Assembly (NCBI GenBank): GCA_029856435.1
Contig: JAHQXB010000022.1
Location: forward strand, 25 to 24,024
Source: Candidatus Jordarchaeia archaeon
Lineage (GTDB): Archaea > Asgardarchaeota > Jordiarchaeia > Jordiarchaeales > Jordiarchaeaceae
Reading direction: 5' to 3'
Length of the DNA stretch: 24,000 nucleotides
The translations under genes and the position numbers were made by a program. The notes below the pieces were generated by a model. That model saw only the letters and a program-made list of their open reading frames with translations. It was not told the DNA's origin and did not search any database. Positions 991-19,535 of the stretch are shown here, piece after piece; the first letter of the stretch is position 1, and each line of letters begins with the position of its first letter.

Positions 991-3048
991 ATGGTTAACA
1001 TGATTAAGGCGTTCCATATTCTTCTGAAGTCCGGTGAGCCCCTTTTCCATAGGGCTTATGGTAAGGAGCAGGTAGATGAATCGCTTTTTTCGGGGTTTCT
1101 AGGCGCTGTTTACAACTTTGCTAAGGAACTGGGCCATGGAGATATCAAGACTGTGGAGGTTGGCGATGCAAGGTTCGTATGCGAAGTTTCTGAGAACTTG
1201 ATTTTCGTGGCTGTTGTTGGGAAAGACGACGATGAGCAAGAACTCAAAAATTTTCTAGGCTTTGCTTCTAAAGCCTTTGTTAACCGCTTCAGGGAGGAAC
1301 TTAGAACATGGCGAGGAAATGTGGTTGTCTTTAGGCCATTTACCCAAGAGTTAGATCACTTGGTAGAAGATTATCAAATGAGGCGGCTCCCCGGTAAGGT
1401 TAAACTGGTGCCTTTTCTAAGAGATGCTTCTGGGGGGTCTTCAAGTTACCCCTTTGATGTGGAGATTGCCTCTGTTTTCTCTTTACTGGAAGATGCAAGA
1501 GGGCGTGGAGGGGGCTTTCTCTGGAAAAAGCCAGAGGAGGAGTTGAGGGGTATTGTAAGAGTTTTATGGCCTTTTTGGATAGTGCCTTTTGAGGATGGAG
1601 TCCGGGGAGTTATAGTGGATGCTATGAGTACGGCGTCCCTACAAATACGAACTAAACGTTACCCGGCTTTAGATAACGCTGATGATTTTCTCAAAATAAA
1701 TAGTGTAGATGTGTTTGTAAATTCTCTCGAGGATCTACTATTAGATTTAGAAAGTGAGAAATTGGAGGAATTTCCACTATATGGATTTTTAGCTCCAGAG
1801 TTAGTTAAAGATTTGGAGGTCAGCTTTTCTCAAGCGAGGTTGGGTGAGGCTAAGGATTATGTTGTAGTCCGCCCCCTTGTAAGTCGCACCCAGGCGGTTG
1901 AGAATAAAACTGTTTTTATGAAGTTAATTCAGGATTTGGAAATACGTTCTCAAAGGCTAATGGAAAAGGAAAATTTCTTAACATTAATAACTGAGAAATG
2001 GCTCAAGGTAATAAGTGAAAAGATGGTGGAGACCGGGGAAAGTTATAAAGTAAAAATAGAGGAAACCGTGAAGGATGTTGAGAAGCAGATTGGAATGCTC
2101 TTACAGCTAAGAGAAGAGGAACTAAAAAAGCTTGATGCTTGGTTTGCTGAAGCCGATAAGAATCTAATACTAGAAATAAAAGAATTGTTTGGTCCACTGA
2201 TTGAGGTTTTAGAAGATGTTGCGTTAAAATCCACCGAGGAGATAGAAAAAACAATCGATGAAAAAATTAGTGTGTTGGAAGTTATAGAGGGGAGAATTCA
2301 AAAATTAGCTAACGTTTCGGAGTATATGAATAAGATCAAGAAATTGATGGAGAACATTTCTAAGAGTATAAAGAAAATTGATTCAACTATTGAGAAAATA
2401 AACAAGAAAATAGAAGTTGACAAAAACTCTATTCTGCAGGACTTTGATAGGAAGATTATGGAACAAAGAAGCCGTGTAGACTTGCTGAAAGAAGAAGCAA
2501 AAGATGTCTTGGGCAAACAACAGATTTTAATGGGCAGAGTTAAATCTAAAATCCAGGAATTAAGTCAGCTGGTTCAACGTGAGCGCAAAGAAATCGGGCA
2601 TATCTTAAACCTTTTAAATTCGCTAATAGTTAAAATGCCGGACAAAATATTTTCCCCATCTCTATTTTATATTCCTCTCTACATTGGAAAATTCGAAGAT
2701 ACAAAGCAAGAAAGATTTTTTGTGGTGCCCCCATTAGTTCTGCTAAAATCGAACGAAGCTATTAGTTGTGATTTTGGGCAGAAAACACTCCCCTTAGATC
2801 TACCTAACCCTGCGTTTCTAGAAGCTGTAAAAGGAAAGGCTGAAACACTAATTAATGATAGTAAGGAACTAAAATTAGAAATTCAAAAGGGCCTTAAAAA
2901 AGCAAATCTAATAAATTCACAACAAGTAGAAACATGCGTTTACGAAGGCTTAAACAATCTATTACGCCTCAATATTCTTACTGAGAAGGACTTTCAAATT
3001 TTGAAAGCTAGAGCCAAAGAGGTTTTTAGGACGGAGGAGAGAATTTAA
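991..3048 (+). CDS. Longin/roadblock-like N-terminal domain protein with long coiled coil (function unknown)
   Basis: This is a 685-aa ORF with an AT-rich TATA-like region upstream (about 905..945). The N-terminal ~100 aa (MIKAFHILLKSGEPLFHRAYG...ARFVCEVSENLIFVAVVGKDDDEQELKNFLGFASKAFVNRF) follows the pattern of longin / roadblock (LC7, MglB) alpha-beta domains. Residues ~300-560 are heptad-rich K/E/I/L coiled coil. The start may be ATG 991 or ATG 1000. Confidence 0.6.
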   Translation: MVNMIKAFHILLKSGEPLFHRAYGKEQVDESLFSGFLGAVYNFAKELGHGDIKTVEVGDARFVCEVSENLIFVAVVGKDDDEQELKNFLGFASKAFVNRFREELRTWRGNVVVFRPFTQELDHLVEDYQMRRLPGKVKLVPFLRDASGGSSSYPFDVEIASVFSLLEDARGRGGGFLWKKPEEELRGIVRVLWPFWIVPFEDGVRGVIVDAMSTASLQIRTKRYPALDNADDFLKINSVDVFVNSLEDLLLDLESEKLEEFPLYGFLAPELVKDLEVSFSQARLGEAKDYVVVRPLVSRTQAVENKTVFMKLIQDLEIRSQRLMEKENFLTLITEKWLKVISEKMVETGESYKVKIEETVKDVEKQIGMLLQLREEELKKLDAWFAEADKNLILEIKELFGPLIEVLEDVALKSTEEIEKTIDEKISVLEVIEGRIQKLANVSEYMNKIKKLMENISKSIKKIDSTIEKINKKIEVDKNSILQDFDRKIMEQRSRVDLLKEEAKDVLGKQQILMGRVKSKIQELSQLVQRERKEIGHILNLLNSLIVKMPDKIFSPSLFYIPLYIGKFEDTKQERFFVVPPLVLLKSNEAISCDFGQKTLPLDLPNPAFLEAVKGKAETLINDSKELKLEIQKGLKKANLINSQQVETCVYEGLNNLLRLNILTEKDFQILKARAKEVFRTEERI

Positions 3049-8873: not shown

Positions 8874-8884
8874 AGGTATTTGTG

Positions 8885-9502
8885 ATGTTTATGTTGGAGG
8901 CTTTTTACCAAAAATTAGATGAAGACATTAAAACTGCTAATGATTTGGAGAAGAGGGGAGATTTTAGAGCTGCGGCGAAACTTTGGATTGAGATAGCTGA
9001 ATACTGCTTAAAATTTGCTAGATCTGAATATGCTTCCGAGGAAATTAGAAAAAACCTTATTGAGAGGTCTGAAGGCTATATTGAGCATGCAAAAATGCTA
9101 AAAATTAGACCAGCACCCTTAAAGGGCTCCATAGAAAAAAGCTCCCCGGCAATAGATTATTTGGAAAAAGCTTTGGATGATAAGATTAGGGCTGATAAAC
9201 AGTGGGTAGCCCTTGACTTAAACTCGTACATAATAACTATGTTTGGTGTAATTGAAAAGCTGCTCTACCATGTTTACATCTCCAAAACGGGTAATCTTCC
9301 TCATTTCGAAGAAACATTTACTTCTCTTGTTAAATGGGCCTACCGGGAAGGAATTATTAGTGATCATCCCGACAATATTGAATTCGTTAGGCTCCTTTAC
9401 GAAAAATTATCCAAAAAATCGCAAAAAATAACTAGTGAACAGGCTATGGAAGCAAGAGAAATAATGGAGCGAGTGTACAAAGAGTTATGCGAAAACCTAT
9501 AG
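8885..9502 (+). CDS. Small helical protein with MIT-like N-terminal three-helix domain (putative)
   Basis: Residues ~5-75 read YQKLDEDIKTANDLEKRGDFRAAAKLWIEIAEYCLKFARSEYASEEIRKNLIERSEGYIEHAKMLK. This follows the MIT pattern seen in Vps4/CdvC (A..a...G....A...Y..A...l........  ....Y..R...LK). The C-terminal half is a helical bundle, possibly HEPN-like, and remains unassigned. The gene starts 8-11 nt after the preceding gene's stop. Confidence 0.45.
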   Translation: MFMLEAFYQKLDEDIKTANDLEKRGDFRAAAKLWIEIAEYCLKFARSEYASEEIRKNLIERSEGYIEHAKMLKIRPAPLKGSIEKSSPAIDYLEKALDDKIRADKQWVALDLNSYIITMFGVIEKLLYHVYISKTGNLPHFEETFTSLVKWAYREGIISDHPDNIEFVRLLYEKLSKKSQKITSEQAMEAREIMERVYKELCENL

Positions 9503-10825: not shown

Positions 10826-11650
10826 TTACTTGCTAGAAATTTTTTTGAGCACATCTCGAATATCATATAAGCAGGTTAGGACACTTTCTATATCAAGTAT
10901 ATCTTGCTGTAGCAAGTTGCCGGCGCGTGAAAGGTCTATCTGTAATCTGAGTATAAAGGGTGAAAAGCCCTCGTTTAATTCAGGGTTTTCGGTATAAATC
11001 GCTGCGTGTATCAAGTCAACGCCGCCGTAGCCTAGGTCGAAAAGCAAGTCGTCAACTTTCAAAAGCAACTCAACTATTCGTTGCTTATCACCCTCGGTGC
11101 GTAGTTCTGCCTCGGCATCAGACAAACTTTTACTAATCTCTTCCAGCCTCTTTTTCAAAGAATCCGCGTTTATAGGCCTCTCCTCTCGATACATGGTAGC
11201 CTCTGGGCAGAAATTAAACCACCACTCAAAGTAGTGCGCTGTGCTGCAGAAGAATTTTTTATCATGATTTAATGGCTCCACGGAAACAGTGTACATGCAT
11301 TCTTCACCACAAATAGTGCACACCCCCGTCCCGTCTTGATATGGCCTGATACCTCCACAAAAAGGTACACGAACGTACATAGCGTCGCCTTTGGGGGGTA
11401 GAAGATTAGGGGGAATTTGCAACTCTTTACTGAATGGTTTTGAGTCTAATTCGGCAAATATTGCAGTCCAGACCGGGCCTCGTGGAGTTCGAACTAAAAG
11501 AGGATTTCTTCTCGGGTGGTTGTTGCAATACGTCCAATATGGATCTTCAATTTTGAAGTTTCTAACCTCACAGAAGGGCTCTTGGCCTTTATCCCTATTT
11601 GCTTTATTGAATATACATGTTCCACAGCAGTCGCTGCCACCATTAGGCAT
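10826..11650 (-). CDS. Cysteine-rich hypothetical protein with FCS/TRASH-like zinc-finger signature
   Basis: This is a 274-aa ORF. It contains the Cys clusters SDCCGTC..FCEV..YCNNHP and VCTICGEEC-x19-FFCSTAHYFEWW (CxxC ... FCS..H). The C-terminal ~110 aa are helical. No family was recognised beyond the zinc-finger pattern. Confidence 0.55.
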   Translation of the reverse strand: MPNGGSDCCGTCIFNKANRDKGQEPFCEVRNFKIEDPYWTYCNNHPRRNPLLVRTPRGPVWTAIFAELDSKPFSKELQIPPNLLPPKGDAMYVRVPFCGGIRPYQDGTGVCTICGEECMYTVSVEPLNHDKKFFCSTAHYFEWWFNFCPEATMYREERPINADSLKKRLEEISKSLSDAEAELRTEGDKQRIVELLLKVDDLLFDLGYGGVDLIHAAIYTENPELNEGFSPFILRLQIDLSRAGNLLQQDILDIESVLTCLYDIRDVLKKISSK

Positions 11651-12048: not shown

Positions 12049-13545
12049 ATGTCTCTAGATAGATTCAAGTGTACTTCTTGTAATGAGGCTGAGGCGGCTT
12101 ACTACTGTGAGGACTGCAAATCAGCTTTCTGTATGGGATGCGCCCAGGAGAGAAGGGAGGAGTTTTTTATCTGCGATTCGTGTGGCTTCAAGGAAACAAA
12201 CCTTGGAATAGATAGGGATAAGAAAAGCTCCTCAAGATGTCCAAATTGTGGTTCAACTAATTTGAGATCTGGGATTAGAAAATGGAAACTTTGTCCTAAC
12301 TGTCGCTCTGGTATGGTTATAAGCGTTCAAGATAAGAGGGTGGAGCTAAAAAAAACCTTTATTGATAATGTTAACAGTATTCTATATGGTTATGAATTGT
12401 TGAAAGATTTTTCGAGGAGACTTAGGGAAACTAGAAAGAGGCTAATCTTTCTCAGACACAGAGGGTATTTCCACTATCCAAAAATGGAGGAAACTCTAAT
12501 CTCTCTGTTCCAAGAAATTATTTCCTTGAAAAAGAAGGTGGAGGCACGGGCTCAACAGGTCTTAAATGTGATTCAAGTGCAACTCGTAGATTTTTCTTAC
12601 CCTGATAATTGGAGCCCACACGATTTTGCACAGATTCAAACAGCAGTGGACAGGATAAAAGCCGATGTGAATGACTACAAAGAATATGTGAAGGGTCTTA
12701 TGGAACAACCTGAAAAGAATCTCGAGACTGTTGTTTCCTTGGTAAAATTGCTGAGTTTTCACTGGAAGTTCTTTGAGGAACATAGAGAAAAAATTGATTT
12801 AGAAATTGGGGAAAAACCTGTAGCAGCCATTCAGAGGGTAAAATATGTGGGAAGCTCTTTTCTCAGTTTAGAAAAATGTAGTGGAATACTTTTGTTAACA
12901 GATAAAAGGATAATTTTTATCAGGGAAAAGGGACTTCTAAACAAGTCGTACCAGAAACATTTTGAACTCCCCTTAAAAGCTCACCAAATTGTAGTTGAAG
13001 GATCCATATGGAAAAAACTCTCTTTTGAAGGTTCACAGGGAGATGTGCGTTTCTCTGCATCCAAAAATACACTAAAAGCAATTGAAAGATACGTAGAATT
13101 AGCTAAAAACTTTGATAAAAGCTCCATAAAGGATAAAACCCAAACCGAAAAACTGGAAAAACTGGAAATAGCCCTAGACGACCTGAAAACTGAGCTACAC
13201 AAAAAAATTATGAGCATTTTCACACCCAAAATTAAGGAGCCCAGTTACGGATTCGAACCACAGCCACATGTTCCCACTGTCACTTCCAGATCTGCTCAAA
13301 AATCTACACCCCCACCATCCACTTATAATCGGGTACAAGTTCAAACTGTGGAAGGATCAGGAAGAGGGGATGTACTAGATTGGGAGCGAAAGAAATTCTC
13401 CGTTGAGCAGCTCCTCAAAAAAATTGAGGAGCTTTGGCGACGTGGGGACATTTCTGTAGAAGAGTATCTAAAAAGAATGAAGAATCTTTATGAAGAACTC
13501 TATGTCTTGAACCAAAAATTGAAAGAAATCCAAGTTCAGGCCTAA
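12049..13545 (+). CDS. Multi-zinc-finger (B-box-like + zinc ribbon) protein with PH/GRAM/GLUE-like domain and SHOCT-like C-terminal tail
   Basis: Six CxxC pairs lie at 12070..12303, with spacing C-x2-C-x8-C-x2-C-x4-C-x2-C-x10-C-x2-C-x18-C-x2-C-x14-C-x2-C. The stretch at 12817..13110 reads VKYVGSSFLSLEKCSGILLLTDKRIIFIREKG...VRFSASKNTLKAIERYVELAKN, a G.L.LT..R.IF split-beta-sandwich pattern. A Pro/Ser/Thr-rich linker follows, then KIEELWRRGDISVEEYLKRMKNLYEEL. I prefer ATG 12049 over the track's TTG 12046; GGCGGTGGG lies upstream. Confidence 0.65.
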   Translation: MSLDRFKCTSCNEAEAAYYCEDCKSAFCMGCAQERREEFFICDSCGFKETNLGIDRDKKSSSRCPNCGSTNLRSGIRKWKLCPNCRSGMVISVQDKRVELKKTFIDNVNSILYGYELLKDFSRRLRETRKRLIFLRHRGYFHYPKMEETLISLFQEIISLKKKVEARAQQVLNVIQVQLVDFSYPDNWSPHDFAQIQTAVDRIKADVNDYKEYVKGLMEQPEKNLETVVSLVKLLSFHWKFFEEHREKIDLEIGEKPVAAIQRVKYVGSSFLSLEKCSGILLLTDKRIIFIREKGLLNKSYQKHFELPLKAHQIVVEGSIWKKLSFEGSQGDVRFSASKNTLKAIERYVELAKNFDKSSIKDKTQTEKLEKLEIALDDLKTELHKKIMSIFTPKIKEPSYGFEPQPHVPTVTSRSAQKSTPPPSTYNRVQVQTVEGSGRGDVLDWERKKFSVEQLLKKIEELWRRGDISVEEYLKRMKNLYEELYVLNQKLKEIQVQA

Positions 13546-13613: not shown

Positions 13614-14249
13614 CTATTCCTTTTCTTTGGGCTTCTTTGAACTCTCCAACTCCCTCCTTAGATCTTCTAGCTCAGATGCCAAGGAAGATTTTTCTGTTAT
13701 TATGTCTCCTTGTGGTACTTTAGGTTCCTCTATTCCCTCTAATGCTATTTCCGCTTCTAGACGGTTTAACTCACTTTCAATGTCTCCTGCTTCTTCAACG
13801 CCCATTTCGGAGGGAGTCGCCAAAATTTCTGAGCTTCTAGAAATTTCGTGCATAGCTTCCTCTTGCTTTATCATCATTTCGAGTATCTGTTCCGAGTTGA
13901 CGAGTTTTCGGGCGTTTTCAAGCTCCGCTCCTGCCAATTCAAATGCTTCTTTGAGTTCTGAAACGTCATGGGCTTCTTCTATGGCGATGAGCCTCGTTTC
14001 AAGGTTCTCGATAAATGCGGTGTACTTGCCTAGAAAATTCTGGTATCTTCTGAACTTTCTGAGGGCGAATGTTGCCATGCCCTTGTTACCCATTTTTAAG
14101 TATTGTTTAGCCCTGTTTCTCTCCTCAATTGCCTTTCTCTCGTAGTTCCGTGAACGCAGAGTCAACCTGTTTATACTAGTTCTCAGCTGTGCAACTATTT
14201 CATCCTTATTTTTCGGCCTTTTTCCAAATAGTATATCTTTAATACTCAT
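13614..14249 (-). CDS. ESCRT-III family protein, Snf7 (Vps20/32/60)-like
   Basis: This is a 211-aa ORF. The stretch RNRAKQYLKMGNKGMATFALRKFRRYQNFLGKYTAFIENLETRLIAIEEAHDVSELKEAFELAGAELE aligns by eye with the yeast Snf7 core (EARIFLTKGNKVMAKNALKKKKTIEQLLSKVEGTMESMEQQLFSIESANLNLE, quoted from memory). The C-terminal half is acidic and ends in an amphipathic helix. AGGAG lies 9 nt upstream of the ATG. Confidence 0.75.
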   Translation of the reverse strand: MSIKDILFGKRPKNKDEIVAQLRTSINRLTLRSRNYERKAIEERNRAKQYLKMGNKGMATFALRKFRRYQNFLGKYTAFIENLETRLIAIEEAHDVSELKEAFELAGAELENARKLVNSEQILEMMIKQEEAMHEISRSSEILATPSEMGVEEAGDIESELNRLEAEIALEGIEEPKVPQGDIITEKSSLASELEDLRRELESSKKPKEKE

Positions 14250-14345
14250 ACCTTTCTCCTCTGAGAGTATTCATAGGCTTCCTAATACATATAATAACTT
14301 CTATTCTTTATTAAACTCTACTCTTTAGGCATTATTATACATATT

Positions 14346-15383
14346 CTATCCGTATATTCTGTTTATTTCTTTTTGTCTGGTTTCTATAAAATCGATGAAG
14401 CTTTCCAGTGAAGGATCCTCCTCAGCTTCCTCATGCACCAGTTCTGCTATGCTAAGCAGGGAGGCTGCCACATGGGTACGTGCGGGCTCAGATTTTATCT
14501 CAGGCTTAATGAGGGCTGCTATTCTCTTTTCAAAATCATTGAAAGTTAGGATTCTATCCACGAGGAGAATAAAGGATTCGGTTATTTTCCTTTCCAGATC
14601 CTGTTTTTCATCAAATATCAAGTTGGCTGCCAAATTTTTGAGGGCGGGTTTCACAATGTCCTCTCTAAACCAACTGAAAAGTTTGCCCTTTTTATCTGAT
14701 GGCGGAAGAAAGCTTGAAGCAGGGACACTAATAGTTTTAGGCTGTTTTTTAAAGTTCTCCGCCATTTTGTGAATGTCTGAGCCTTTAATGGTTTCCATTG
14801 CCGCTAGTACTAGCGACTTCACCCCCAAAACCACTTCTTTCCTACTGAAGACCTCCAACATTTTTTCCAGAGCGTGTTTGGCTTCCTCGTAGGAGACCTC
14901 CTTTAAAATAAAAGATTTGAAAAGTTCCAAGATTTTTGCTCTTGTTTCTAGAGCTTCACTATAGCCAACGCTATCCAGTGTCAGGATTCTATAGCCGGGA
15001 TCCAGAACTTGCTTGTCAAACCACTTCACAACTATGTATTCATCAGTAACTCTCTTTAAGTCCTCTAGAGTAAGTTTGGGCTCCACTTCCTCTAACTCAT
15101 CGCAAAGCTGTGAGGCAAATGTTTCAAATACCGAGGACACGTAGGTTTGGAGCGCTTCATCCAACTTGAGACCTTCTAAAATCTTCTCAACCTTCTTTTT
15201 AAACGTGGGCTCAGAAATTTTTCCTTCCACCCGCTGTTTAAAATATGGAAACGACTTCTCCTTAACTATCTGAGATTTCTCAACAAAATTAGTCACAATA
15301 CTGTCTAAGACGCCAAAAACCACATACTCAAAAAATTCTCTTAAAATTTTTAGACTCTTTTCTGAATCAAAAATGTAGGGCAT
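14346..15383 (-). CDS. Hypothetical all-helical protein, translationally coupled to the upstream ATPase gene
   Basis: This is a 345-aa ORF. It starts 16 nt after the ATPase stop, and that gap contains a GGTGA SD-like element. I recognised no motif. Confidence 0.6.
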   Translation of the reverse strand: MPYIFDSEKSLKILREFFEYVVFGVLDSIVTNFVEKSQIVKEKSFPYFKQRVEGKISEPTFKKKVEKILEGLKLDEALQTYVSSVFETFASQLCDELEEVEPKLTLEDLKRVTDEYIVVKWFDKQVLDPGYRILTLDSVGYSEALETRAKILELFKSFILKEVSYEEAKHALEKMLEVFSRKEVVLGVKSLVLAAMETIKGSDIHKMAENFKKQPKTISVPASSFLPPSDKKGKLFSWFREDIVKPALKNLAANLIFDEKQDLERKITESFILLVDRILTFNDFEKRIAALIKPEIKSEPARTHVAASLLSIAELVHEEAEEDPSLESFIDFIETRQKEINRIYG

Positions 15384-15399
15384 TCAAATTCACCAAGAA

Positions 15400-18300
15400 T
15401 CATTCGATAAGTGATCTGCGCAGTTGCTCAATTTTTTCGAAAGCTTTCCTCTTCAAGAAAACATACTCATCTTCAGACATCCTACCCAACTCAAAATACT
15501 CGTGCAAGCTCCTTAAATATTTCTGGAATTTCTCTATCTGCCTCAGAATCTCTTCCTGCCTTTTCTCCTTACCAGACAACTTTTCCTCCCCCGCTTCCTC
15601 TAATGGTTTTACGCTCACTGGTTCGCCTACCGGCTTACTAACTTCTGGTTCGCTTACTGGTTTACTAATTTCCGGTTCAACGCTCTCTTCGGCGCTTATT
15701 CTGGGTACTGGTAGTGGGCTGGTCAATTCTGGAGGTTCCTCCCTCACTGTGGTTTCCTTAATTAGGGGTTTTGGCCTTGGTCTACGGGGAGCCGCCTTTA
15801 AGCCTCTAACTATCTCTTTAATTGTTGTTACTATGCCTGTCGCCTCATTTTTAAGCGCCGAAGTGGATGAGACACCAATTACTGTGTTTTCCTCGGTTTC
15901 AACTATTCCTACGGCTAATCTTGACTTCTCCTTAGAGGCTAAAACCACAGGTACACTTTTTGTCGCGTCTATCTCTGTTTGCCAGCCGTCTTCCCTCAAT
16001 TTTGTGTAAATTTCACGGACGGCTTCTCCGCCGCGTCCCTGCGTCACTATTGATTCTGCTACTCCCTCCATTTTGGGAGCTGGATATAAATGATCGTAAA
16101 ATCTGTATTCCAAGACACGCTTTAGGTAGTCAGAGGCCAAATCCGTTGGTAGGCTGAGTACGGGTGGGGCTGGTATTGATATGTCTGGGGACACTTCCAC
16201 CCTTTCTTCTTCTATAAGTTCTTCCAAAGCTTCTAAGGTCTCGGTCTCTTTTTCGGGTGTACTCCCTATTTCCTCGACGGTTTTTTCAATTTCCGGAGTG
16301 GCAACCTTTTTTGGAGCAATGGCTGTGAGTTCCCCAATTATCTTGGGAAGGGCTTCGCGGCCGGAATGCTGACTCAGTCTCGGTCTTATCTTAACTACAA
16401 GGGCACGGTTACTGGTAATAGATTCGTCTGAAACAATGGTCATTCCAACGGGAATGTTCCTTATAAATCCGGAATCCTTTATTTCTATGGGGACTTCTGC
16501 TGGTGATCTTTTTGTGAAAGCAGTAATGTCTGGTTCATAGGACAAATAATGTGTTATCAGCACGTCTAGTTGAGATAAAATTCTACTATCTGTGGCTGAG
16601 GGTTGCTGGGTCACAAGCACTAATCCACAGCCGGGTTTCCTTCCCAGTTTAGCATATTCTACGAGCGGTTCAGAAGCTGCAGTAGCACCTTTAGAGGGAG
16701 CGAGTAGATGAGCTTCATCAATCATCAGCCAAGTCACAGGAATCTCTGCCTCAACCTTTTCCTCCGTTGCCTCGCCCAGCTGTGCAGCCTCTTCCCTTCT
16801 TGCTATCTGCGCTCTCACCTTAAGTATCCTTCGCGCCAGTATGCCAATAATTAGAGCACGCAGACTATCATCTATATGACTTACGTCAATGACAGATACC
16901 TGATTGGGAACCGCTAACTGAGTTAAGCTAGTTCCTTTGGCTGAGAAGATTCCCCACTGATTTGCGGAGGAAAATCTGGCAACCAAAGCTCTTCTAGTGT
17001 CACGCCTAAATCCCTTGTCCTCAGAAATAATGTCGGAACAAGTCTCAACACATTTAATTAAATCCTCTAGGCTGTAATCGTTTCCTTTAGCGGGGACATC
17101 CACTTCTTGGTCGTCGATTGTGGCCCTGTAGCCTTTTTTGACCCTATCAATGACCTGTTCTGTTAAGAGGCCAAGTGCGCCAAACCTGTCTATACCAAAG
17201 GTGTGGCACCAATCGTCAGCTGTTAACTCCGAGGGCCTCAACGAGAAAGGCATATCCCTAGTTTGCTCAGGAACCCTATCATAGAAACCAATTGGAATAA
17301 AGACCCTCACGTTATCGAATCCCTTAGGGGTGAGGTTCCATTTTTCAAGAGCTTCCAACTCTTTTTCATCCCAATTGGGATACTTCATACTCCAAAAGAT
17401 TCCCATGGGATCAACGATGATGGTGGCGATTCCCAGTCTTGATTCCGCTAACTCCTCTGCAATAACTCCCATAGTGTAAGATTTACCAGAGCCTCTATGA
17501 CCACTTATAAATATAACGTGAGGCTTCACCCCATCAAGAAGAACCTTACAGCCAAGCAGGTTCACATCTTTGCTAGTCCTCTCTCCCACACAACCAATGT
17601 AGAATGTTCCCCTGCAGCCAAGTTTGGCTTGTGTAGACTTTGTTCTCCCTAAAATTACTGATTCGCCTAGACTGTCTCTAAGAACATTGAGTGGGCTGTC
17701 AACTATTTTAGGCGTGTCAACTATATTTACCCTCTCAGAGTTAATCACACTCGCCTCACCAATAATGTAGGCTAGCGCCTGCCAGTAATCCTTCAAACTT
17801 TTAAAACCAATTTGCTCCGCAATGTACCTTCTAAGCTTTGGTTGTTTTGGGTACTTCTCTTTATCGAAGCTCGACAGGCTCCATAGAAGGAAATCCGCGG
17901 TTTCCTGAGCTGATAGTCTCCCTAATGGTTTAACCGCCTTCAGAGCTTTTTCCAAATATTCCATACTCTCGGTAGCCATCAAAAGAAGCAGAAATACCTC
18001 CACCCGCTTATTTATATCAATTGAACTTATGAGCTCAACCATATTGTCAAGAAATTTGTCATCTTCATTATACATAAAACCTTCAAAAAGAATCTTCGCA
18101 ATTTCTAGGTCGAGTGATTTCTGGAACAAAGCGAACTCCAATGCGGCCTGAAGAGACTTTTGAATCTTGTCGCTCCCAGATTCTGCCAGTAGTGAACGAA
18201 AGGCATGGACTATGGTTGCTGTGGCTTCGCCGTCTATTTCTCCCCTGCTTGAAAGCCAAGCTCCAGAATTTGATTGTAGAGAAATCAGTCCTTCAGCGGT

Positions 18301-18465
18301 TTCGTTAGATTTCTCCAAGAAGGACTTCTCGCCAGTAGCCCTATACATGAGGATATAACAGTTCAGAAGATAGGCCCTGTCTCTAATGGTCGCAGGTTCC
18401 ACCGTCAAAACGTTCTGGATAATGTTAGAAAGTAATTCACATAAGGGCCTTCCGCTAAATAACAT
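15400..18465 (-). CDS. HerA/FtsK-type (DUF87-like) P-loop ATPase with N-terminal helical domain and C-terminal extension
   Basis: Walker A is VIFISGHRGSGKSYTMG (GHRGSGKS at 17479..17502). Walker B is WLMIDEAHLL (16708..16728). The block GCGLVLVTQQPSATDSRILSQLDVLITHYL is typical of HerA/FtsK-like translocases, and the core ends KIRPRLSQHSG. About 320 aa of helical sequence precede the P-loop. About 320 aa follow the core, including 9-aa repeats and a SHOCT-like tail. GAGGGG lies about 8 nt upstream of the ATG. Confidence 0.8.
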   Translation of the reverse strand: MLFSGRPLCELLSNIIQNVLTVEPATIRDRAYLLNCYILMYRATGEKSFLEKSNETAEGLISLQSNSGAWLSSRGEIDGEATATIVHAFRSLLAESGSDKIQKSLQAALEFALFQKSLDLEIAKILFEGFMYNEDDKFLDNMVELISSIDINKRVEVFLLLLMATESMEYLEKALKAVKPLGRLSAQETADFLLWSLSSFDKEKYPKQPKLRRYIAEQIGFKSLKDYWQALAYIIGEASVINSERVNIVDTPKIVDSPLNVLRDSLGESVILGRTKSTQAKLGCRGTFYIGCVGERTSKDVNLLGCKVLLDGVKPHVIFISGHRGSGKSYTMGVIAEELAESRLGIATIIVDPMGIFWSMKYPNWDEKELEALEKWNLTPKGFDNVRVFIPIGFYDRVPEQTRDMPFSLRPSELTADDWCHTFGIDRFGALGLLTEQVIDRVKKGYRATIDDQEVDVPAKGNDYSLEDLIKCVETCSDIISEDKGFRRDTRRALVARFSSANQWGIFSAKGTSLTQLAVPNQVSVIDVSHIDDSLRALIIGILARRILKVRAQIARREEAAQLGEATEEKVEAEIPVTWLMIDEAHLLAPSKGATAASEPLVEYAKLGRKPGCGLVLVTQQPSATDSRILSQLDVLITHYLSYEPDITAFTKRSPAEVPIEIKDSGFIRNIPVGMTIVSDESITSNRALVVKIRPRLSQHSGREALPKIIGELTAIAPKKVATPEIEKTVEEIGSTPEKETETLEALEELIEEERVEVSPDISIPAPPVLSLPTDLASDYLKRVLEYRFYDHLYPAPKMEGVAESIVTQGRGGEAVREIYTKLREDGWQTEIDATKSVPVVLASKEKSRLAVGIVETEENTVIGVSSTSALKNEATGIVTTIKEIVRGLKAAPRRPRPKPLIKETTVREEPPELTSPLPVPRISAEESVEPEISKPVSEPEVSKPVGEPVSVKPLEEAGEEKLSGKEKRQEEILRQIEKFQKYLRSLHEYFELGRMSEDEYVFLKRKAFEKIEQLRRSLIE
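15620..15673. repeat. Two tandem 27-nt units (22/27 identical) inside the ATPase gene, with degenerate flanking copies
   Basis: Unit 1 is ggttcgcctaccggcttactaacttct (15620..15646) and unit 2 is ggttcgcttactggtttactaatttcc (15647..15673). All five differences are C/T transitions. The units encode EPE(I/V)SKPV(S/G), a Pro/Glu/Lys-rich linker. Confidence 0.85.
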
Positions 18466-18508
18466 AATCGCTTCCCCTCAAATTTCCAAGTAGAAAAAGG
18501 GAAGAGTT

Positions 18509-19120
18509 TCAGAGTTCTTCTTTCAATTTCTTAATGTCTTTTTCCAGTTCCTCAATCTTCCCGCTCGGTGCAGAAGGAAGCTTTACACCAGTCTCCACAC
18601 CGATTTCTTGGTCAATCTCGGAAATAGTTGCCGCAACCTCTTGGGATGTCACCTCAGTGGAAACCGTCATTCTCTCCATTCCCGCCTCAGCAACATCCTG
18701 AGCCACGTCAAAATCCTGCATAGTTCCATCTATTTCCTCAACCATTTGGGCTATGTCTGGCAAGTTAACTGCCCCCTTAAGCCCATTAAGAGCGGATCTT
18801 ATGCCTGATAGGGTGCTGGCAACATCATAAATGGACTCGCTCTGACGAAGCCTAACCACCATGCCTTGAATCCTGAGACGGTAGGCGTCTGTTGCTAGAG
18901 CCCACTTTGAATACCTTACATAGTGTTCGGCATACATTTTAGCTGCTTCTGTGTTTCCCCTAAGCCGGTACTTCTTGGCTTCCTCTCGGTTTTTTCTAGA
19001 CTCTCTCTCTAGCTGTTTTTTCTGATATTCAAGCTTGCGGGTGAACACTTCAAGTTTGTAAATAACATCTTTAATTTTAGGCCCACCCTTAAGCCAACTC
19101 ACAAACTTTTTTAGCGGCAT
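18509..19120 (-). CDS. ESCRT-III family protein, Vps2/24/46 (CHMP1/2/3)-like
   Basis: The stretch REEAKKYRLRGNTEAAKMYAEHYVRYSKWALATDAYRLRIQGMVVRLRQSESIYDVASTLSGIRSALNGLKGAVNLPDIAQMVEEIDGTMQDFDV aligns by eye with the yeast Vps2 core (IKKSAKNGQVAAAKVQAKDLVRTRNYIQKFDNMKAQLQAISLRIQAVRSSDQMTRSMSEATGLLAGMNRTMNLPQLQRISMEFEKQSDLM, quoted from memory). I set the start at the internal ATG 19120 (MPLKKFVSWLKGG...) rather than the track start at 19237. The reasons are a TATA-like element at 19153..19160 and the typical ESCRT-III N-terminus. Confidence 0.75.
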   Translation of the reverse strand: MPLKKFVSWLKGGPKIKDVIYKLEVFTRKLEYQKKQLERESRKNREEAKKYRLRGNTEAAKMYAEHYVRYSKWALATDAYRLRIQGMVVRLRQSESIYDVASTLSGIRSALNGLKGAVNLPDIAQMVEEIDGTMQDFDVAQDVAEAGMERMTVSTEVTSQEVAATISEIDQEIGVETGVKLPSAPSGKIEELEKDIKKLKEEL

Positions 19121-19152
19121 ATAAATTACACCAATAAACTCTTGATATATCC

Positions 19153-19160
19153 TATATAAG
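19153..19160 (-). promoter_or_regulatory. Candidate TATA box for the ESCRT-III/ATPase gene string
   Basis: The minus strand reads CTTATATA, about 32 nt upstream of ATG 19120. A GGTG lies 12-15 nt before that ATG. By eye only. Confidence 0.3.
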
Positions 19161-19535
19161 AAAATTGAGAAGGAAGCATATAACACTTTCTTAATGTGCA
19201 TTTGAGACCTTGTCGTAAGTATGTGGTTTGTTGACATGGTATGTGTGCAGGTTTAGCCATTCTTACCATTTTTTGGGCCTATTTGGAAGGAAGCCCTGTT
19301 AAGCCTCCTTTTTTTGAGAGGATCAAACGATTACGCATAGAAGAGAAGCTACATACTTAAGACGAGGTCCCTGTGCATTTTTTCCCCTCAAAACCGTTCC
19401 ACTTCCCATGTTTCTGGACTAAATTTGAAAATTTTAAATCACTCATAAAAGCTTCGAAGCGTTTAAAGCAAACATATAATCGCTTCGTCTAAACGCAAAT
19501 TGTGAAAGGCACTTAGCTTTTTTCATAGTACTAGA

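Follow-up and report, generated by a model that had tools for sequence, protein, structure and literature searches.

Asgard archaea encode a protein family, described as asCOG cog.011556 and named Znr_CC_PH_SB, that was proposed to be an ESCRT-I-like component (Makarova et al. 2024, mBio 15:e00335-24, PMC10936438). The protein As_004-p_01543 of Lokiarchaeum GC14_75 is listed as cog.011556 Znr_CC_PH_SB in this work, and the term "Jord" does not occur in its main text and the supplementary files searched. The root of the Asgard tree has been placed between Jordarchaeia and the remaining Asgard archaea (Eme et al. 2023, as summarised in PMC12395588). Here we describe a gene on a 24,000-nucleotide stretch of Jordarchaeial DNA, referred to below as the window. 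Its product is, with near certainty, a Jordarchaeial member of Znr_CC_PH_SB; the family was already described in 2024 and is not new.

A Jordarchaeial gene of the Znr_CC_PH_SB family

The complete gene, including its stop codon, occupies positions 12049..13545 of the plus strand. It is the sole long open reading frame at its position (12046/12049-13545, +), and translation from the ATG at 12049 gives a protein of 498 residues, whose start methionine is aligned with that of full-length homologues. A profile search gave 157 representative clusters with E ≤ 1e-3, of which 97 reach E ≤ 1e-10, and full-length members are numerous. The family is represented in Jord-, Thor- and Lokiarchaeia, and both P. 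syntrophicum MK-D1 and L. ossiferum, which are in culture, have a member. The family HMM scores 483.9 bits against the window protein. The Pfam matches of the protein itself all lie below the gathering thresholds, NCBIfam contains no informative model for it, and a single-sequence search of the PDB with the whole protein gave chance-level matches only.

The identity of this family with cog.011556 is near certain and is based on architecture and synteny rather than on direct sequence comparison. A Lokiarchaeial member, P0026, matches the family profile with an E value of 1.7e-63, and its locus has the same gene order as the GC14_75 locus, namely PepC69, L35Ae, X, MetE, Snf7/Vps20 and DHQS. Because this exact gene order is shared, we infer that P0026 and As_004-p_01543 are orthologues, an assignment made from synteny and not from aligned sequences. 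The GC14_75 member itself is not among the 120 matches listed.

The domains are arranged in the order zinc module, three-helix stalk, GLUE/GRAM-type PH domain, flexible proline-rich linker and Vps23-type steadiness box. The preliminary description had read the protein as a B-box-like zinc finger fused to a PH-like domain and linked to adjacent ESCRT-III and ATPase genes. The PH domain and the ESCRT-III linkage hold, the B-box is borne out in part, and the ATPase linkage is not general. The C-terminal steadiness box, the three-helix stalk and the prior publication as Znr_CC_PH_SB had been missed.

Zinc module, PH domain and steadiness box

The N-terminal module contains three predicted zinc sites. 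As had been noted before, twelve cysteines form six CxxC pairs, at positions 8, 11, 20, 23, 28, 31, 42, 45, 64, 67, 82 and 85, with the full spacing C-x2-C-x8-C-x2-C-x4-C-x2-C-x10-C-x2-C-x18-C-x2-C-x14-C-x2-C. When 47 homologues with 20-60% identity to the window protein are aligned, none of the 12 varies, so the pattern is not a product of chance. The thirteenth cysteine, Cys-277, is situated within the PH domain and outside the conserved columns. Among the 47 members, the gap is x7-11 between pairs 1 and 2, x4 between pairs 2 and 3 (47 of 47), x10 between pairs 3 and 4 (46 of 47), x12-35 between pairs 4 and 5, and x14 between pairs 5 and 6 (41 of 47).

These cysteine positions and invariant gaps define pairs 1-4 (residues 8-45; 12070..12183, +) as one compact, predicted two-zinc unit with B-box or C4C4 RING-like spacing. 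Pairs 5-6 (residues 64-85; 12238..12303, +) form a predicted classical zinc ribbon, C-x2-C-x14-C-x2-C, around a β-hairpin, and AF2 predicts strands at residues 72-81 and 90-92. The Pfam matches of this pair are DZR_2, Zn_ribbon_3 and Zn_ribbon_8, and Zn_Ribbon_TF matches 4 of the 47 members (best E 8.9e-8). Foldseek aligned pairs 5-6 with the zinc ribbons of MCM, HypA and Trf, none significantly.

The assignment of pairs 1-4 to a cross-brace finger of the B-box or RING-like type, by spacing and sub-threshold profiles, is only partly supported. The spacing C-x2-C-x8-C-x2-C-x4-C-x2-C that had been reported for pairs 1-3 is found exactly so in the sequence, and ligands 1-6 agree with the B-box pattern C-x2-C-x7-10-C-x2-C-x4-5-C-x2-C (x8 and x4 here; x7-11 and x4 in the family). 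The top Pfam zinc-finger matches of the module are ANCHR-like_BBOX (E 2.5e-4) and zf-B_box (E 8.2e-4), both sub-threshold; on the excised module, they score 21.5 against a threshold of 27 bits and 19.9 against a gathering threshold of 24.1 bits, respectively. At E ≤ 0.01, zf-B_box matches 13 of the 47 members and ANCHR-like_BBOX matches 7, and many family members carry the NCBI name "B-box zinc finger protein". Three results speak against this assignment: the fourth pair, the scores below the Pfam thresholds and the outcome of the fold search. B-box ligands 7-8 would be His or Cys at x3-6 and x2-8 after ligand 6, but the family has a CxxC after x10 in 46 of 47 members, and the window protein has no histidine in residues 1-136. 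Structure prediction of residues 1-95, which the preliminary description had proposed as a check, gives strands only and no helix (AF2, pLDDT 82). Foldseek on the isolated module found no significant match, with a best E value of 0.077 and the CONSTANS B-box aligned over 25 columns only; its RING matches have high rmsd.

When the zinc-module profile is compared with the PDB, RING, B-box and PHD cross-brace fingers are retrieved. RING domains come first (RNF4, 7.1e-6; TRIM21, 2.7e-4; then RING2/BMI1 and RNF8), and the B-boxes of TRIM2, TRIM3, KAP1, CONSTANS and MID1 are also matched, together with the TFIIH p44 chain 1z60. The x2/x8/x2/x4/x2/x10/x2 cysteine spacing resembles that of C4C4 RINGs, such as the CNOT4 and p44 patterns. 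As in the B-box fingers of TRIM proteins, CONSTANS and ANCHR/ZFYVE19 (PF00643, PF22586), pair 2 of the module is preceded by an aromatic residue and pair 3 by a hydrophobic one. In contrast to these fingers, the last pair of the family is a CxxC after x10, the scores are sub-threshold and no helix is predicted. An NZF-type ubiquitin-binding finger was also considered for the x10 gap between pairs 3 and 4 and was rejected, as the NZF Trp/Asn and Thr-Phe residues are absent by inspection.

The module is followed by three long helices (residues 93-244; 12325..12780, +), which make up a helical stalk and correspond to the "CC" of the family name. AF2 places them at residues 93-137, 144-179 and 190-244 with pLDDT values mostly of 84-97 and one block at 70; the stalk has no significant Pfam match.

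The PH domain, of the GLUE/GRAM/bacterial-PH type, comprises residues 257-353 (12817..13107, +) and is identified by AF2, Foldseek and profile searches. The PH-like fold that had been suggested for this region is borne out by the AF2 model, in which these residues form seven strands and a C-terminal helix (pLDDT 80.5). The G-x-L-x-LT-x2-R-x2-F motif noted before is found as G279-I-L-L-L-T284-D-K-R287-I-I-F290. Gly-279 is invariant, and Thr-284 and Phe-290 are nearly invariant, in the 47-homologue alignment. Among single domains, Foldseek ranks the Vps36 GLUE domain highest (2cay; E 4.2e-4, 24% identity, TM 0.52), ahead of the GRAM/PH domains of Lam6 and MTMR2; PH matches at E ≤ 1e-3 have probabilities of 0.9-1.0. 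Vps36 also ranks first, weakly, when the PH-region profile is compared with the PDB (E 0.0078). By predicted structure and by profile, the Vps36 GLUE domain is the closest solved relative of the modelled PH domain, with a weak sequence signal. Pfam bPH_3 matches 22 of the 47 members and GRAM matches 7, and Vps36_ESCRT-II scores 14.9 against a threshold of 24.1 bits. Winged-helix domains are absent from the AF2 model, in which the PH domain is uninterrupted, and Pfam gives no EAP30 or ESCRT-II match.

Short helices (residues 362-391) and a disordered Pro/Ser/Thr-rich linker (residues 396-439, pLDDT below 50) come next in the AF2 model (13132..13365, +). Alignments show that the linker is variable in length and sequence, with much longer linkers in Loki-type members, and no P[ST]xP motif was seen in the linker by inspection of the sequence.

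The protein ends in a predicted helical hairpin (residues 440-497; 13366..13539, +), modelled with helices at residues 439-464 and 470-497 (pLDDT 86-94), that by its sequence is homologous to the Vps23-type steadiness box. Pfam Vps23_core matches the window protein with an E value of 3.8e-3 and 9 of the 47 members, at best with 7.2e-6. The top three PDB matches of the family's steadiness-box profile are all the yeast Vps23 core (2p22, 2f66 and 2caz; E 3.4e-7 to 4e-6), and TSG101 and VPS37B follow near E 0.01. The alignment with Vps23 covers 56 columns and includes the GxI motif, and the steadiness-box part of the family profile retrieves proteins with UEV and Vps23_core domains. With default filters, the steadiness-box HMM matches only family members among all reading frames of the window and the loci. 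Neither UEV nor UQ_con has a Pfam match in the window protein or in the 47 members. A SHOCT domain at the C terminus was tried and rejected: Pfam gives no SHOCT match at E ≤ 10 and reports Vps23_core, and the PDB profile comparison favours Vps23.

Linkage to ESCRT-III genes and a HerA-like ATPase operon

An ESCRT-III (Snf7) gene on the minus strand (13614..14249; Pfam Snf7, 1.9e-19) converges on the target gene, with 68 nucleotides between the two stop codons. It is of the Vps20 type, as it groups by BLAST with the Lokiarchaeial Snf7 protein at the position of the GC14_75 "Vps20", cog.001938. The preliminary description had proposed a link to ESCRT-III in this genome, and the link extends beyond it. 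In 10 of 14 distinct genomic contexts, a convergent Snf7 gene lies at most 3.7 kb downstream of the family gene (two Jordarchaeial clades and loci L006, L008, L009, L011, L014/15, L016, L017 and L024). The convergent neighbour is of the Vps20 type in 9 of these 10, where the L024 gene is placed by the L008/GC14_75 gene order and not by typing. Three contexts (L010, L022 and L018) contain no Snf7 gene within about 5-8 kb, and the one in L023 lies at a distance of 4.4 kb in the same orientation. If a genome of roughly 4 Mb holds about two Snf7 genes, we estimate the chance of such adjacency at about 0.2% per genome. In Thorarchaeota, the family gene is found beside Snf7, Vps4, Vps25 and Vps22.

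Beyond the first Snf7 gene, the minus strand carries a 345-residue reading frame, a 1021-residue HerA/DUF87 ATPase and a second Snf7 gene, in this order. The 345-residue protein (14346..15383, -) has no Pfam or NCBIfam match and is detectable only in the close Jordarchaeial clade (the window and L004). The ATPase (15400..18465, -) belongs to the HerA/FtsK superfamily (Pfam DUF87, 2e-13; HerA_C, 4.8e-6), and the NCBIfam HerA models score far below their cut-offs. Its N-terminal helical domain is conserved, its C-terminal hairpin is specific to Jordarchaeia, and no MIT domain was found by Pfam in residues 1-300, residues 701-900 or the C terminus. The second Snf7 gene (18509..19120, -; Pfam Snf7, 2.4e-17) is listed as a reading frame extending to 19237, but its L001 and L004 orthologues start at the methionine at 19120 in an alignment. 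It is of the Vps2/24 type, as typed by BLAST with the Thorarchaeial Snf7 that adjoins Vps4.

An operon of ESCRT-III, HerA-like ATPase and ESCRT-III genes is conserved in Jord-, Hel- and Heimdallarchaeota, and in the latter two lineages the ATPase orthologues lie between or beside Snf7 genes. A description of a HerA/DUF87-ESCRT-III link in Asgard archaea was not found in the searchable literature, an absence that is not proof; if truly undescribed, this operon may be the more novel result from the window.

Linkage of the family to the ATPase is not general: among the contexts examined, the HerA-like gene adjoins a family member only in Jordarchaeia. The Heimdallarchaeal operon (L021) has no family member within 6 kb, and the Hel locus (L020) gives no information on this point because its contig stops on the side in question.

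Proposed role and comparison with known ESCRT components

The Jordarchaeial protein is probably a membrane adaptor of the ESCRT-I/II-like kind that works upstream of ESCRT-III, a role that agrees with the published ESCRT-I-like reading of the family (Makarova et al. 2024, PMC10936438). The following sequence of steps can be proposed on the basis of domain homology and gene linkage. The PH domain would dock the protein on a membrane, and the steadiness box may pair with those of ESCRT-I-type subunits (Vps23-like, Vps28-like) or with itself. The zinc module would then bind a partner or cargo, possibly of the ubiquitin type, and the assembly would mark the site where the Vps20-like initiator ESCRT-III, encoded tail to tail, starts to polymerise.

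A CdvA-like function, in which the protein would not be a cargo-sorting ESCRT-I subunit but would polymerise as a membrane anchor and recruit ESCRT-III for division or abscission, appears unlikely. The predicted membrane-binding domain, the long helical region, the hairpin and the adjoining ESCRT-III gene would fit such a function, the steadiness box has been reported to resemble CdvA in HHpred (Makarova et al., PMC10936438), and Pfam CdvA matches one family member (E 0.0059) as well as some proteins retrieved only via the steadiness-box part of the profile. However, the family protein lacks a PRC-barrel domain, Vps23 is by a wide margin the best PDB match of its steadiness-box profile, and the Thorarchaeal Vps4/Vps25/Vps22 locus fits a sorting-type ESCRT. 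We hold it to be very unlikely that the zinc module is a RING- or B-box-type E3 or E2-docking module, through which the protein would link the Asgard ubiquitin system to membranes and ubiquitylate cargo or itself. RING domains are indeed the first profile matches (RNF4, 7.1e-6), and the spacing of pairs 1-4 is RING-like, but cysteine-rich profiles readily score other cysteine-rich fingers. The missing helix and the high rmsd of the Foldseek RING matches also argue against it, and an E1 or E2 gene was not found within the window.

Two further explanations concern the neighbouring genes. That the protein in Jordarchaeia serves chiefly as an adaptor of the adjacent HerA-like ATPase, via paired C-terminal hairpins, is compatible with the ESCRT-I/II-like role but quite unlikely. 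The extra hairpin of the Jordarchaeial ATPases (consensus QKYLRSLHEYyxLGRMTEEEYxFLKRK) resembles the steadiness box (11.4 bits with the steadiness-box HMM, with filters off only; hhalign P 3e-4), Hel, Heimdall and further homologues lack such a tail, and all loci with a family member directly beside the operon are Jordarchaeial. On the other hand, the similarity is weak, with an hhalign probability of 39.5% over 29 columns. Outside Jordarchaeia, family genes are linked to ESCRT-III genes but not to the ATPase, and the Heimdallarchaeal operon has no family member within 6 kb. It is also conceivable, but unlikely, that the Jordarchaeial protein is the membrane- and site-recognition subunit of an undescribed ESCRT-III machine with a HerA/FtsK-type motor, coupled through steadiness-box-like C-terminal hairpins. 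If true, membrane scission by ESCRT-III could thereby be connected to an ATPase that pumps DNA or acts as a pump on the polymer. Finally, a generic zinc-ribbon and bacterial-PH protein without ESCRT function, whose adjacency to Snf7 is only inherited synteny, is highly improbable. The conserved Jordarchaeial block does hold housekeeping genes (proteasome alpha, RNA methyltransferase and TauE), but the Snf7 adjacency recurs in lineages where all other neighbours differ, and the steadiness-box homology to Vps23 is specific.

Few Asgard ESCRT components lack a eukaryotic counterpart, and Znr_CC_PH_SB is among them. With Jordarchaeia as the sister lineage of the other Asgard archaea, a conserved full-length Jordarchaeial orthologue supports the published inference that Asgard archaea inherited the family from their common ancestor. 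That the gene is repeatedly paired tail to tail with a Vps20-like ESCRT-III gene suggests how Asgard ESCRT-III may be targeted to membranes, and experiments are possible because members exist in both cultured Asgard archaea.

The window protein and Vps36 (PDB codes 2cay and 1w7p) share the PH fold of the GLUE domain and, as in yeast Vps36, zinc fingers in the same polypeptide. In contrast to yeast Vps36, the zinc fingers are N-terminal and do not interrupt the PH domain, and they do not belong to the NZF type. With the ESCRT-I subunit Vps23/TSG101 (2p22, 2f66, 2caz and 6vme) the family shares the C-terminal helical hairpin, but it carries a zinc module and a PH domain on the N-terminal side instead of a UEV domain, and a disordered linker rather than a continuous stalk precedes the steadiness box. 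The agreement with cog.011556 extends to the zinc module, the helical or coiled-coil region, the PH domain and the steadiness box, all in the same order, to the restriction to Asgard archaea, and to the position of the gene beside a Vps20-type ESCRT-III gene in Lokiarchaeia. The window protein differs in that it is short (498 residues), comes from Jordarchaeia and is encoded beside the HerA-like ATPase operon, and its CxxC pairs 1-4 are better described as a single cross-brace-like unit than as two independent ribbons.

Architecture and family of the window protein

The ORF at window positions 12049–13545 (+) encodes a protein of 498 residues, for which an AlphaFold2 model of the full chain was built from 15 sequences (mean pLDDT 80.5). 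The model consists of a strand-only zinc module (residues 1–92), three long helices (93–244), a β-sandwich with a C-terminal helix (PH; 257–353), short helices (362–391), a disordered proline-rich linker (396–439), and a confidently predicted helical hairpin (439–497).

A PH/GRAM/GLUE domain had been proposed in the preliminary description from the motif G279-x-L-x-L-T-x-x-R-x-x-F290, which is found in the protein. The β-sandwich of the model bears this out, as do the database matches. Foldseek against the PDB returned PH domains; the multi-domain matches were DH-PH proteins with poor overall TM-scores, and the top single-domain matches were the GLUE domain of yeast Vps36 (2cay, 24% identity, TM 0.52 on the target) and the GRAM-type PH domains of Lam6 and MTMR2. 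When a profile of the PH segment was searched against the PDB, Vps36 chains took the first two places, though weakly (E 0.0078 and 0.015), and bacterial PH and GRAM proteins came after them. Over 47 family members, Pfam matched bPH_3 in 22, GRAM in 7, and Vps36_ESCRT-II in one (4.3e-5).

The clearest domain signal is the C-terminal hairpin, which was absent from the preliminary description. Its profile placed the yeast Vps23 ESCRT-I core structures 2p22, 2f66, and 2caz as the top three PDB matches (E 3.4e-7 to 4e-6; 56 columns), with TSG101 and VPS37B next, near 0.01. Pfam Vps23_core matched the segment at 3.8e-3 and was found in 9 of the 47 members (best 7.2e-6), and the hairpin region of the family profile alone retrieved proteins that combine UEV with Vps23_core from 1.8 billion representatives. 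By these profile matches the hairpin is a steadiness box. The preliminary interpretation is partly supported and has to be extended by this domain.

In a word-indexed search the protein had only 14 relatives, each of them Jordarchaeial. Exhaustive searching with a profile reached 157 representative clusters, of which 97 had E ≤ 1e-10; full-length proteins (500–830 residues), whose main difference is the length of the linker, are common among the representatives. Members with a named source belong to Loki-/Promethearchaeota, to Thorarchaeota, or to bins labelled Hod-, Heimdall-, and Odinarchaeota, and two cultured archaea, Promethearchaeum syntrophicum MK-D1 and Lokiarchaeum ossiferum, have copies. 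The Asgard-specific family Znr_CC_PH_SB (cog.011556) has a Lokiarchaeum GC14_75 member that is tabled with L35Ae on one side and MetE on the other, and with a Vps20-type ESCRT-III and 3-dehydroquinate synthase beyond MetE (Makarova et al. 2024, PMC10936438). Because exactly this gene order occurs at the Loki homologue P0026, and likewise at locus L024, we infer from architecture and synteny that the window protein is a Jordarchaeial member of cog.011556.

The zinc module

The six CxxC pairs (8/11, 20/23, 28/31, 42/45, 64/67, and 82/85) and their spacing are present exactly as first described. All 12 cysteines are invariant in an alignment of 47 homologues, each only 20–60% identical to the window protein, so the pattern is not due to chance. 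The gaps between pairs 2 and 3 (x4, 47/47), 3 and 4 (x10, 46/47), and 5 and 6 (x14, 41/47) are nearly fixed, whereas that between pairs 4 and 5 varies from 12 to 35 residues. Pairs 1–4 thus behave like one rigid unit and pairs 5–6 like a second.

The best Pfam matches of the excised module were ANCHR-like_BBOX (2.5e-4) and zf-B_box (8.2e-4), both under the gathering scores; across the family they match 7 and 13 of the 47 members, respectively. Many members are already annotated as "B-box zinc finger protein" by the NCBI pipeline. The module profile matched almost exclusively cross-brace fingers in the PDB (E 7e-6 to 0.05), among them the RINGs of RNF4 and TRIM21 and the B-boxes of TRIM2, TRIM3, KAP1, CONSTANS, MID1, and PML, as well as PHD fingers and a chain of the TFIIH p44 subunit (1z60). 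Other results speak against membership. In contrast to a B-box, where a His/Cys pair follows after x3–6, the fourth ligand pair here is CxxC after x10. A separate model of residues 1–95 (pLDDT 82) contains no helix, and Foldseek with it gave nothing significant (best E 0.077), its list mixing zinc ribbons with high-rmsd RINGs and a match to CONSTANS over 25 columns. Pairs 1–4 therefore appear B-box or C4C4-RING-like by spacing and profile, with B-box membership putative. Pairs 5–6 make up an ordinary zinc ribbon.

Genomic linkage to ESCRT-III and the neighbouring operon

Fourteen distinct genomic contexts were compared, and in 10 of them the family member has a convergent Snf7 (ESCRT-III) gene downstream: at 68 nt in the window (Jordarchaeial clade I), 99 nt in Jordarchaeial clade II (L001–3), with a 4-nt overlap in L006, and at 33 nt in L011 (Thorarchaeota), 0.9 kb in L016, 1.2 kb in L008, 1.5 kb in L009, 1.6 kb in L024, 2.4 kb in MK-D1 (L014/15), and 3.6 kb in L. 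ossiferum (L017). In L023 Snf7 is 4.4 kb away and co-directional, and in L010, L022, and L018 there is none near the family member. In L004 a Snf7 fragment lies immediately downstream, with a full Snf7 2.2 kb further. This fragment of Ca. Freyarchaeum deiterrae (80 residues, L004 11586–11825 (−)) is separated from the full gene by three inserted genes and looks like something that a duplication or insertion has left behind. The clade P0015–P0017 (L010, L022), which has no adjoining Snf7, has glycosyltransferase genes nearby in both contexts and a Ribophorin_I gene downstream, which in L022 directly follows the family member and in L010 is some 7 kb distant.

By BLAST typing the neighbouring Snf7 is the Vps20-type paralogue in all lineages but Thorarchaeota, that of L024 being counted as such from its L008/GC14_75-like gene order. 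In Thorarchaeota it is of the Vps2/24 type, and Vps4, Vps25, and Vps22 come next. Since the other neighbours differ between lineages, the linkage to Snf7 reflects selection rather than inherited synteny. Of the linkage to ESCRT-III and the ATPase proposed earlier, the ESCRT-III part stands, but the HerA-like ATPase adjoins the family member only in Jordarchaeial loci among those examined.

On the minus strand of the window (13614–19237), the order is Vps2/24-type Snf7, a HerA/FtsK-superfamily (DUF87) ATPase of 1021 residues, a 345-residue ORF, and Vps20-type Snf7, so that the ATPase is encoded between the two paralogues. Helarchaeota (L020, 210–4281) have Snf7 (Vps2/24 type), ATPase, and Snf7 (Vps20 type), all co-directional, and Heimdallarchaeota (L021, 6001–10876) have the ATPase, a 304-residue ORF, and Snf7 (Vps20 type). 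The arrangement is conserved in Jord-, Hel-, and Heimdallarchaeota. The ATPase orthologues share an N-terminal domain and the ATPase core. The Jordarchaeial ones carry an extra hairpin (…QKYLRSLHEYFELGRMSEDEYVFLKRK…) in their last ~50 residues (15400–15560 (−)) that is missing from the Hel, Heimdall, and other homologues compared; its likeness to the steadiness box is faint (11.4 bits; hhalign probability 39.5%, P 3e-4). The 345-residue ORF (14346–15383 (−)) has no family match and could be detected in no clade but the closest Jordarchaeial one; the 304-residue ORF that fills its slot in Heimdallarchaeota is non-homologous. The Vps2/24-type Snf7 (18509–19237 (−)) is listed with 39 N-terminal codons that have no counterpart in orthologues, and translation probably begins at the Met at 19120. 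In the ESCRT literature searched, HerA or DUF87 is mentioned only in a supplementary gene table, for HerA-NurA loci of Crenarchaeota (Makarova et al. 2024, PMC10936438), and searches for HerA/DUF87 combined with ESCRT-III found nothing relevant.

The window (G+C ~41%) holds an Asgard-type gene set of a longin-domain protein, two Snf7, a MIT-domain protein, and an archaeal proteasome α subunit, and the closest homologues of the protein carry the labels Candidatus Freyarchaeota, Jordarchaeum, or Jordarchaeales. The MIT candidate (8882–9502 (+), 206 residues, sub-threshold E 5.4e-4, C terminus faintly HEPN-like) lies 2.5 kb upstream and is kept in L004 and L005; ESCRT-III tails are ligands of MIT domains. 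A 274-residue Cys-rich protein (10826–11650 (−)), between the proteasome α subunit and our gene, was not found in the syntenic loci L004, L005, and L001 and is thus probably a lineage-specific insertion. A further eukaryote-signature trafficking domain, a longin of the FUZ/MON1/HPS1 type (Pfam E 1.8e-6), stands at the N terminus of a 685-residue protein (991–3048 (+)); at the corresponding position L004 has a gene for 681 residues.

Proposed role and relation to the published family

The analysis shows the domain set and the gene linkage, and from there we infer a mechanism in which the PH domain would bind the membrane, the steadiness box would pair with other hairpins of the ESCRT-I type, and the zinc module would bind a partner or cargo. 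The complex may then set the site where initiator-type ESCRT-III polymerises. A passage in Souza et al. 2025 (PMC11804906) has remodelling "initiate"d by B-type (Vps20-like) paralogues.

Three other readings were weighed. That the protein beside Snf7 is a CdvA-like anchor for division is unlikely. Coupling to the HerA-like ATPase, specific to Jordarchaeia, is slightly more doubtful, and an E3-type role of the zinc finger, whose profile matches include RINGs along with B-boxes and PHD fingers, seems the least probable. The conserved pairing with the Vps20-type paralogue is part of the value of the finding, as is the operon beside the gene.

The family having been published, the protein is a new lineage's member and not a new family. 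Makarova et al. 2024 (PMC10936438) regard cog.011556 as "a likely ESCRT-I component", say of its PH domain that it "is expected to be membrane associated", and consider the family "likely to be ancestral in Asgardarchaeota", a status to which the Jordarchaeial protein adds support.
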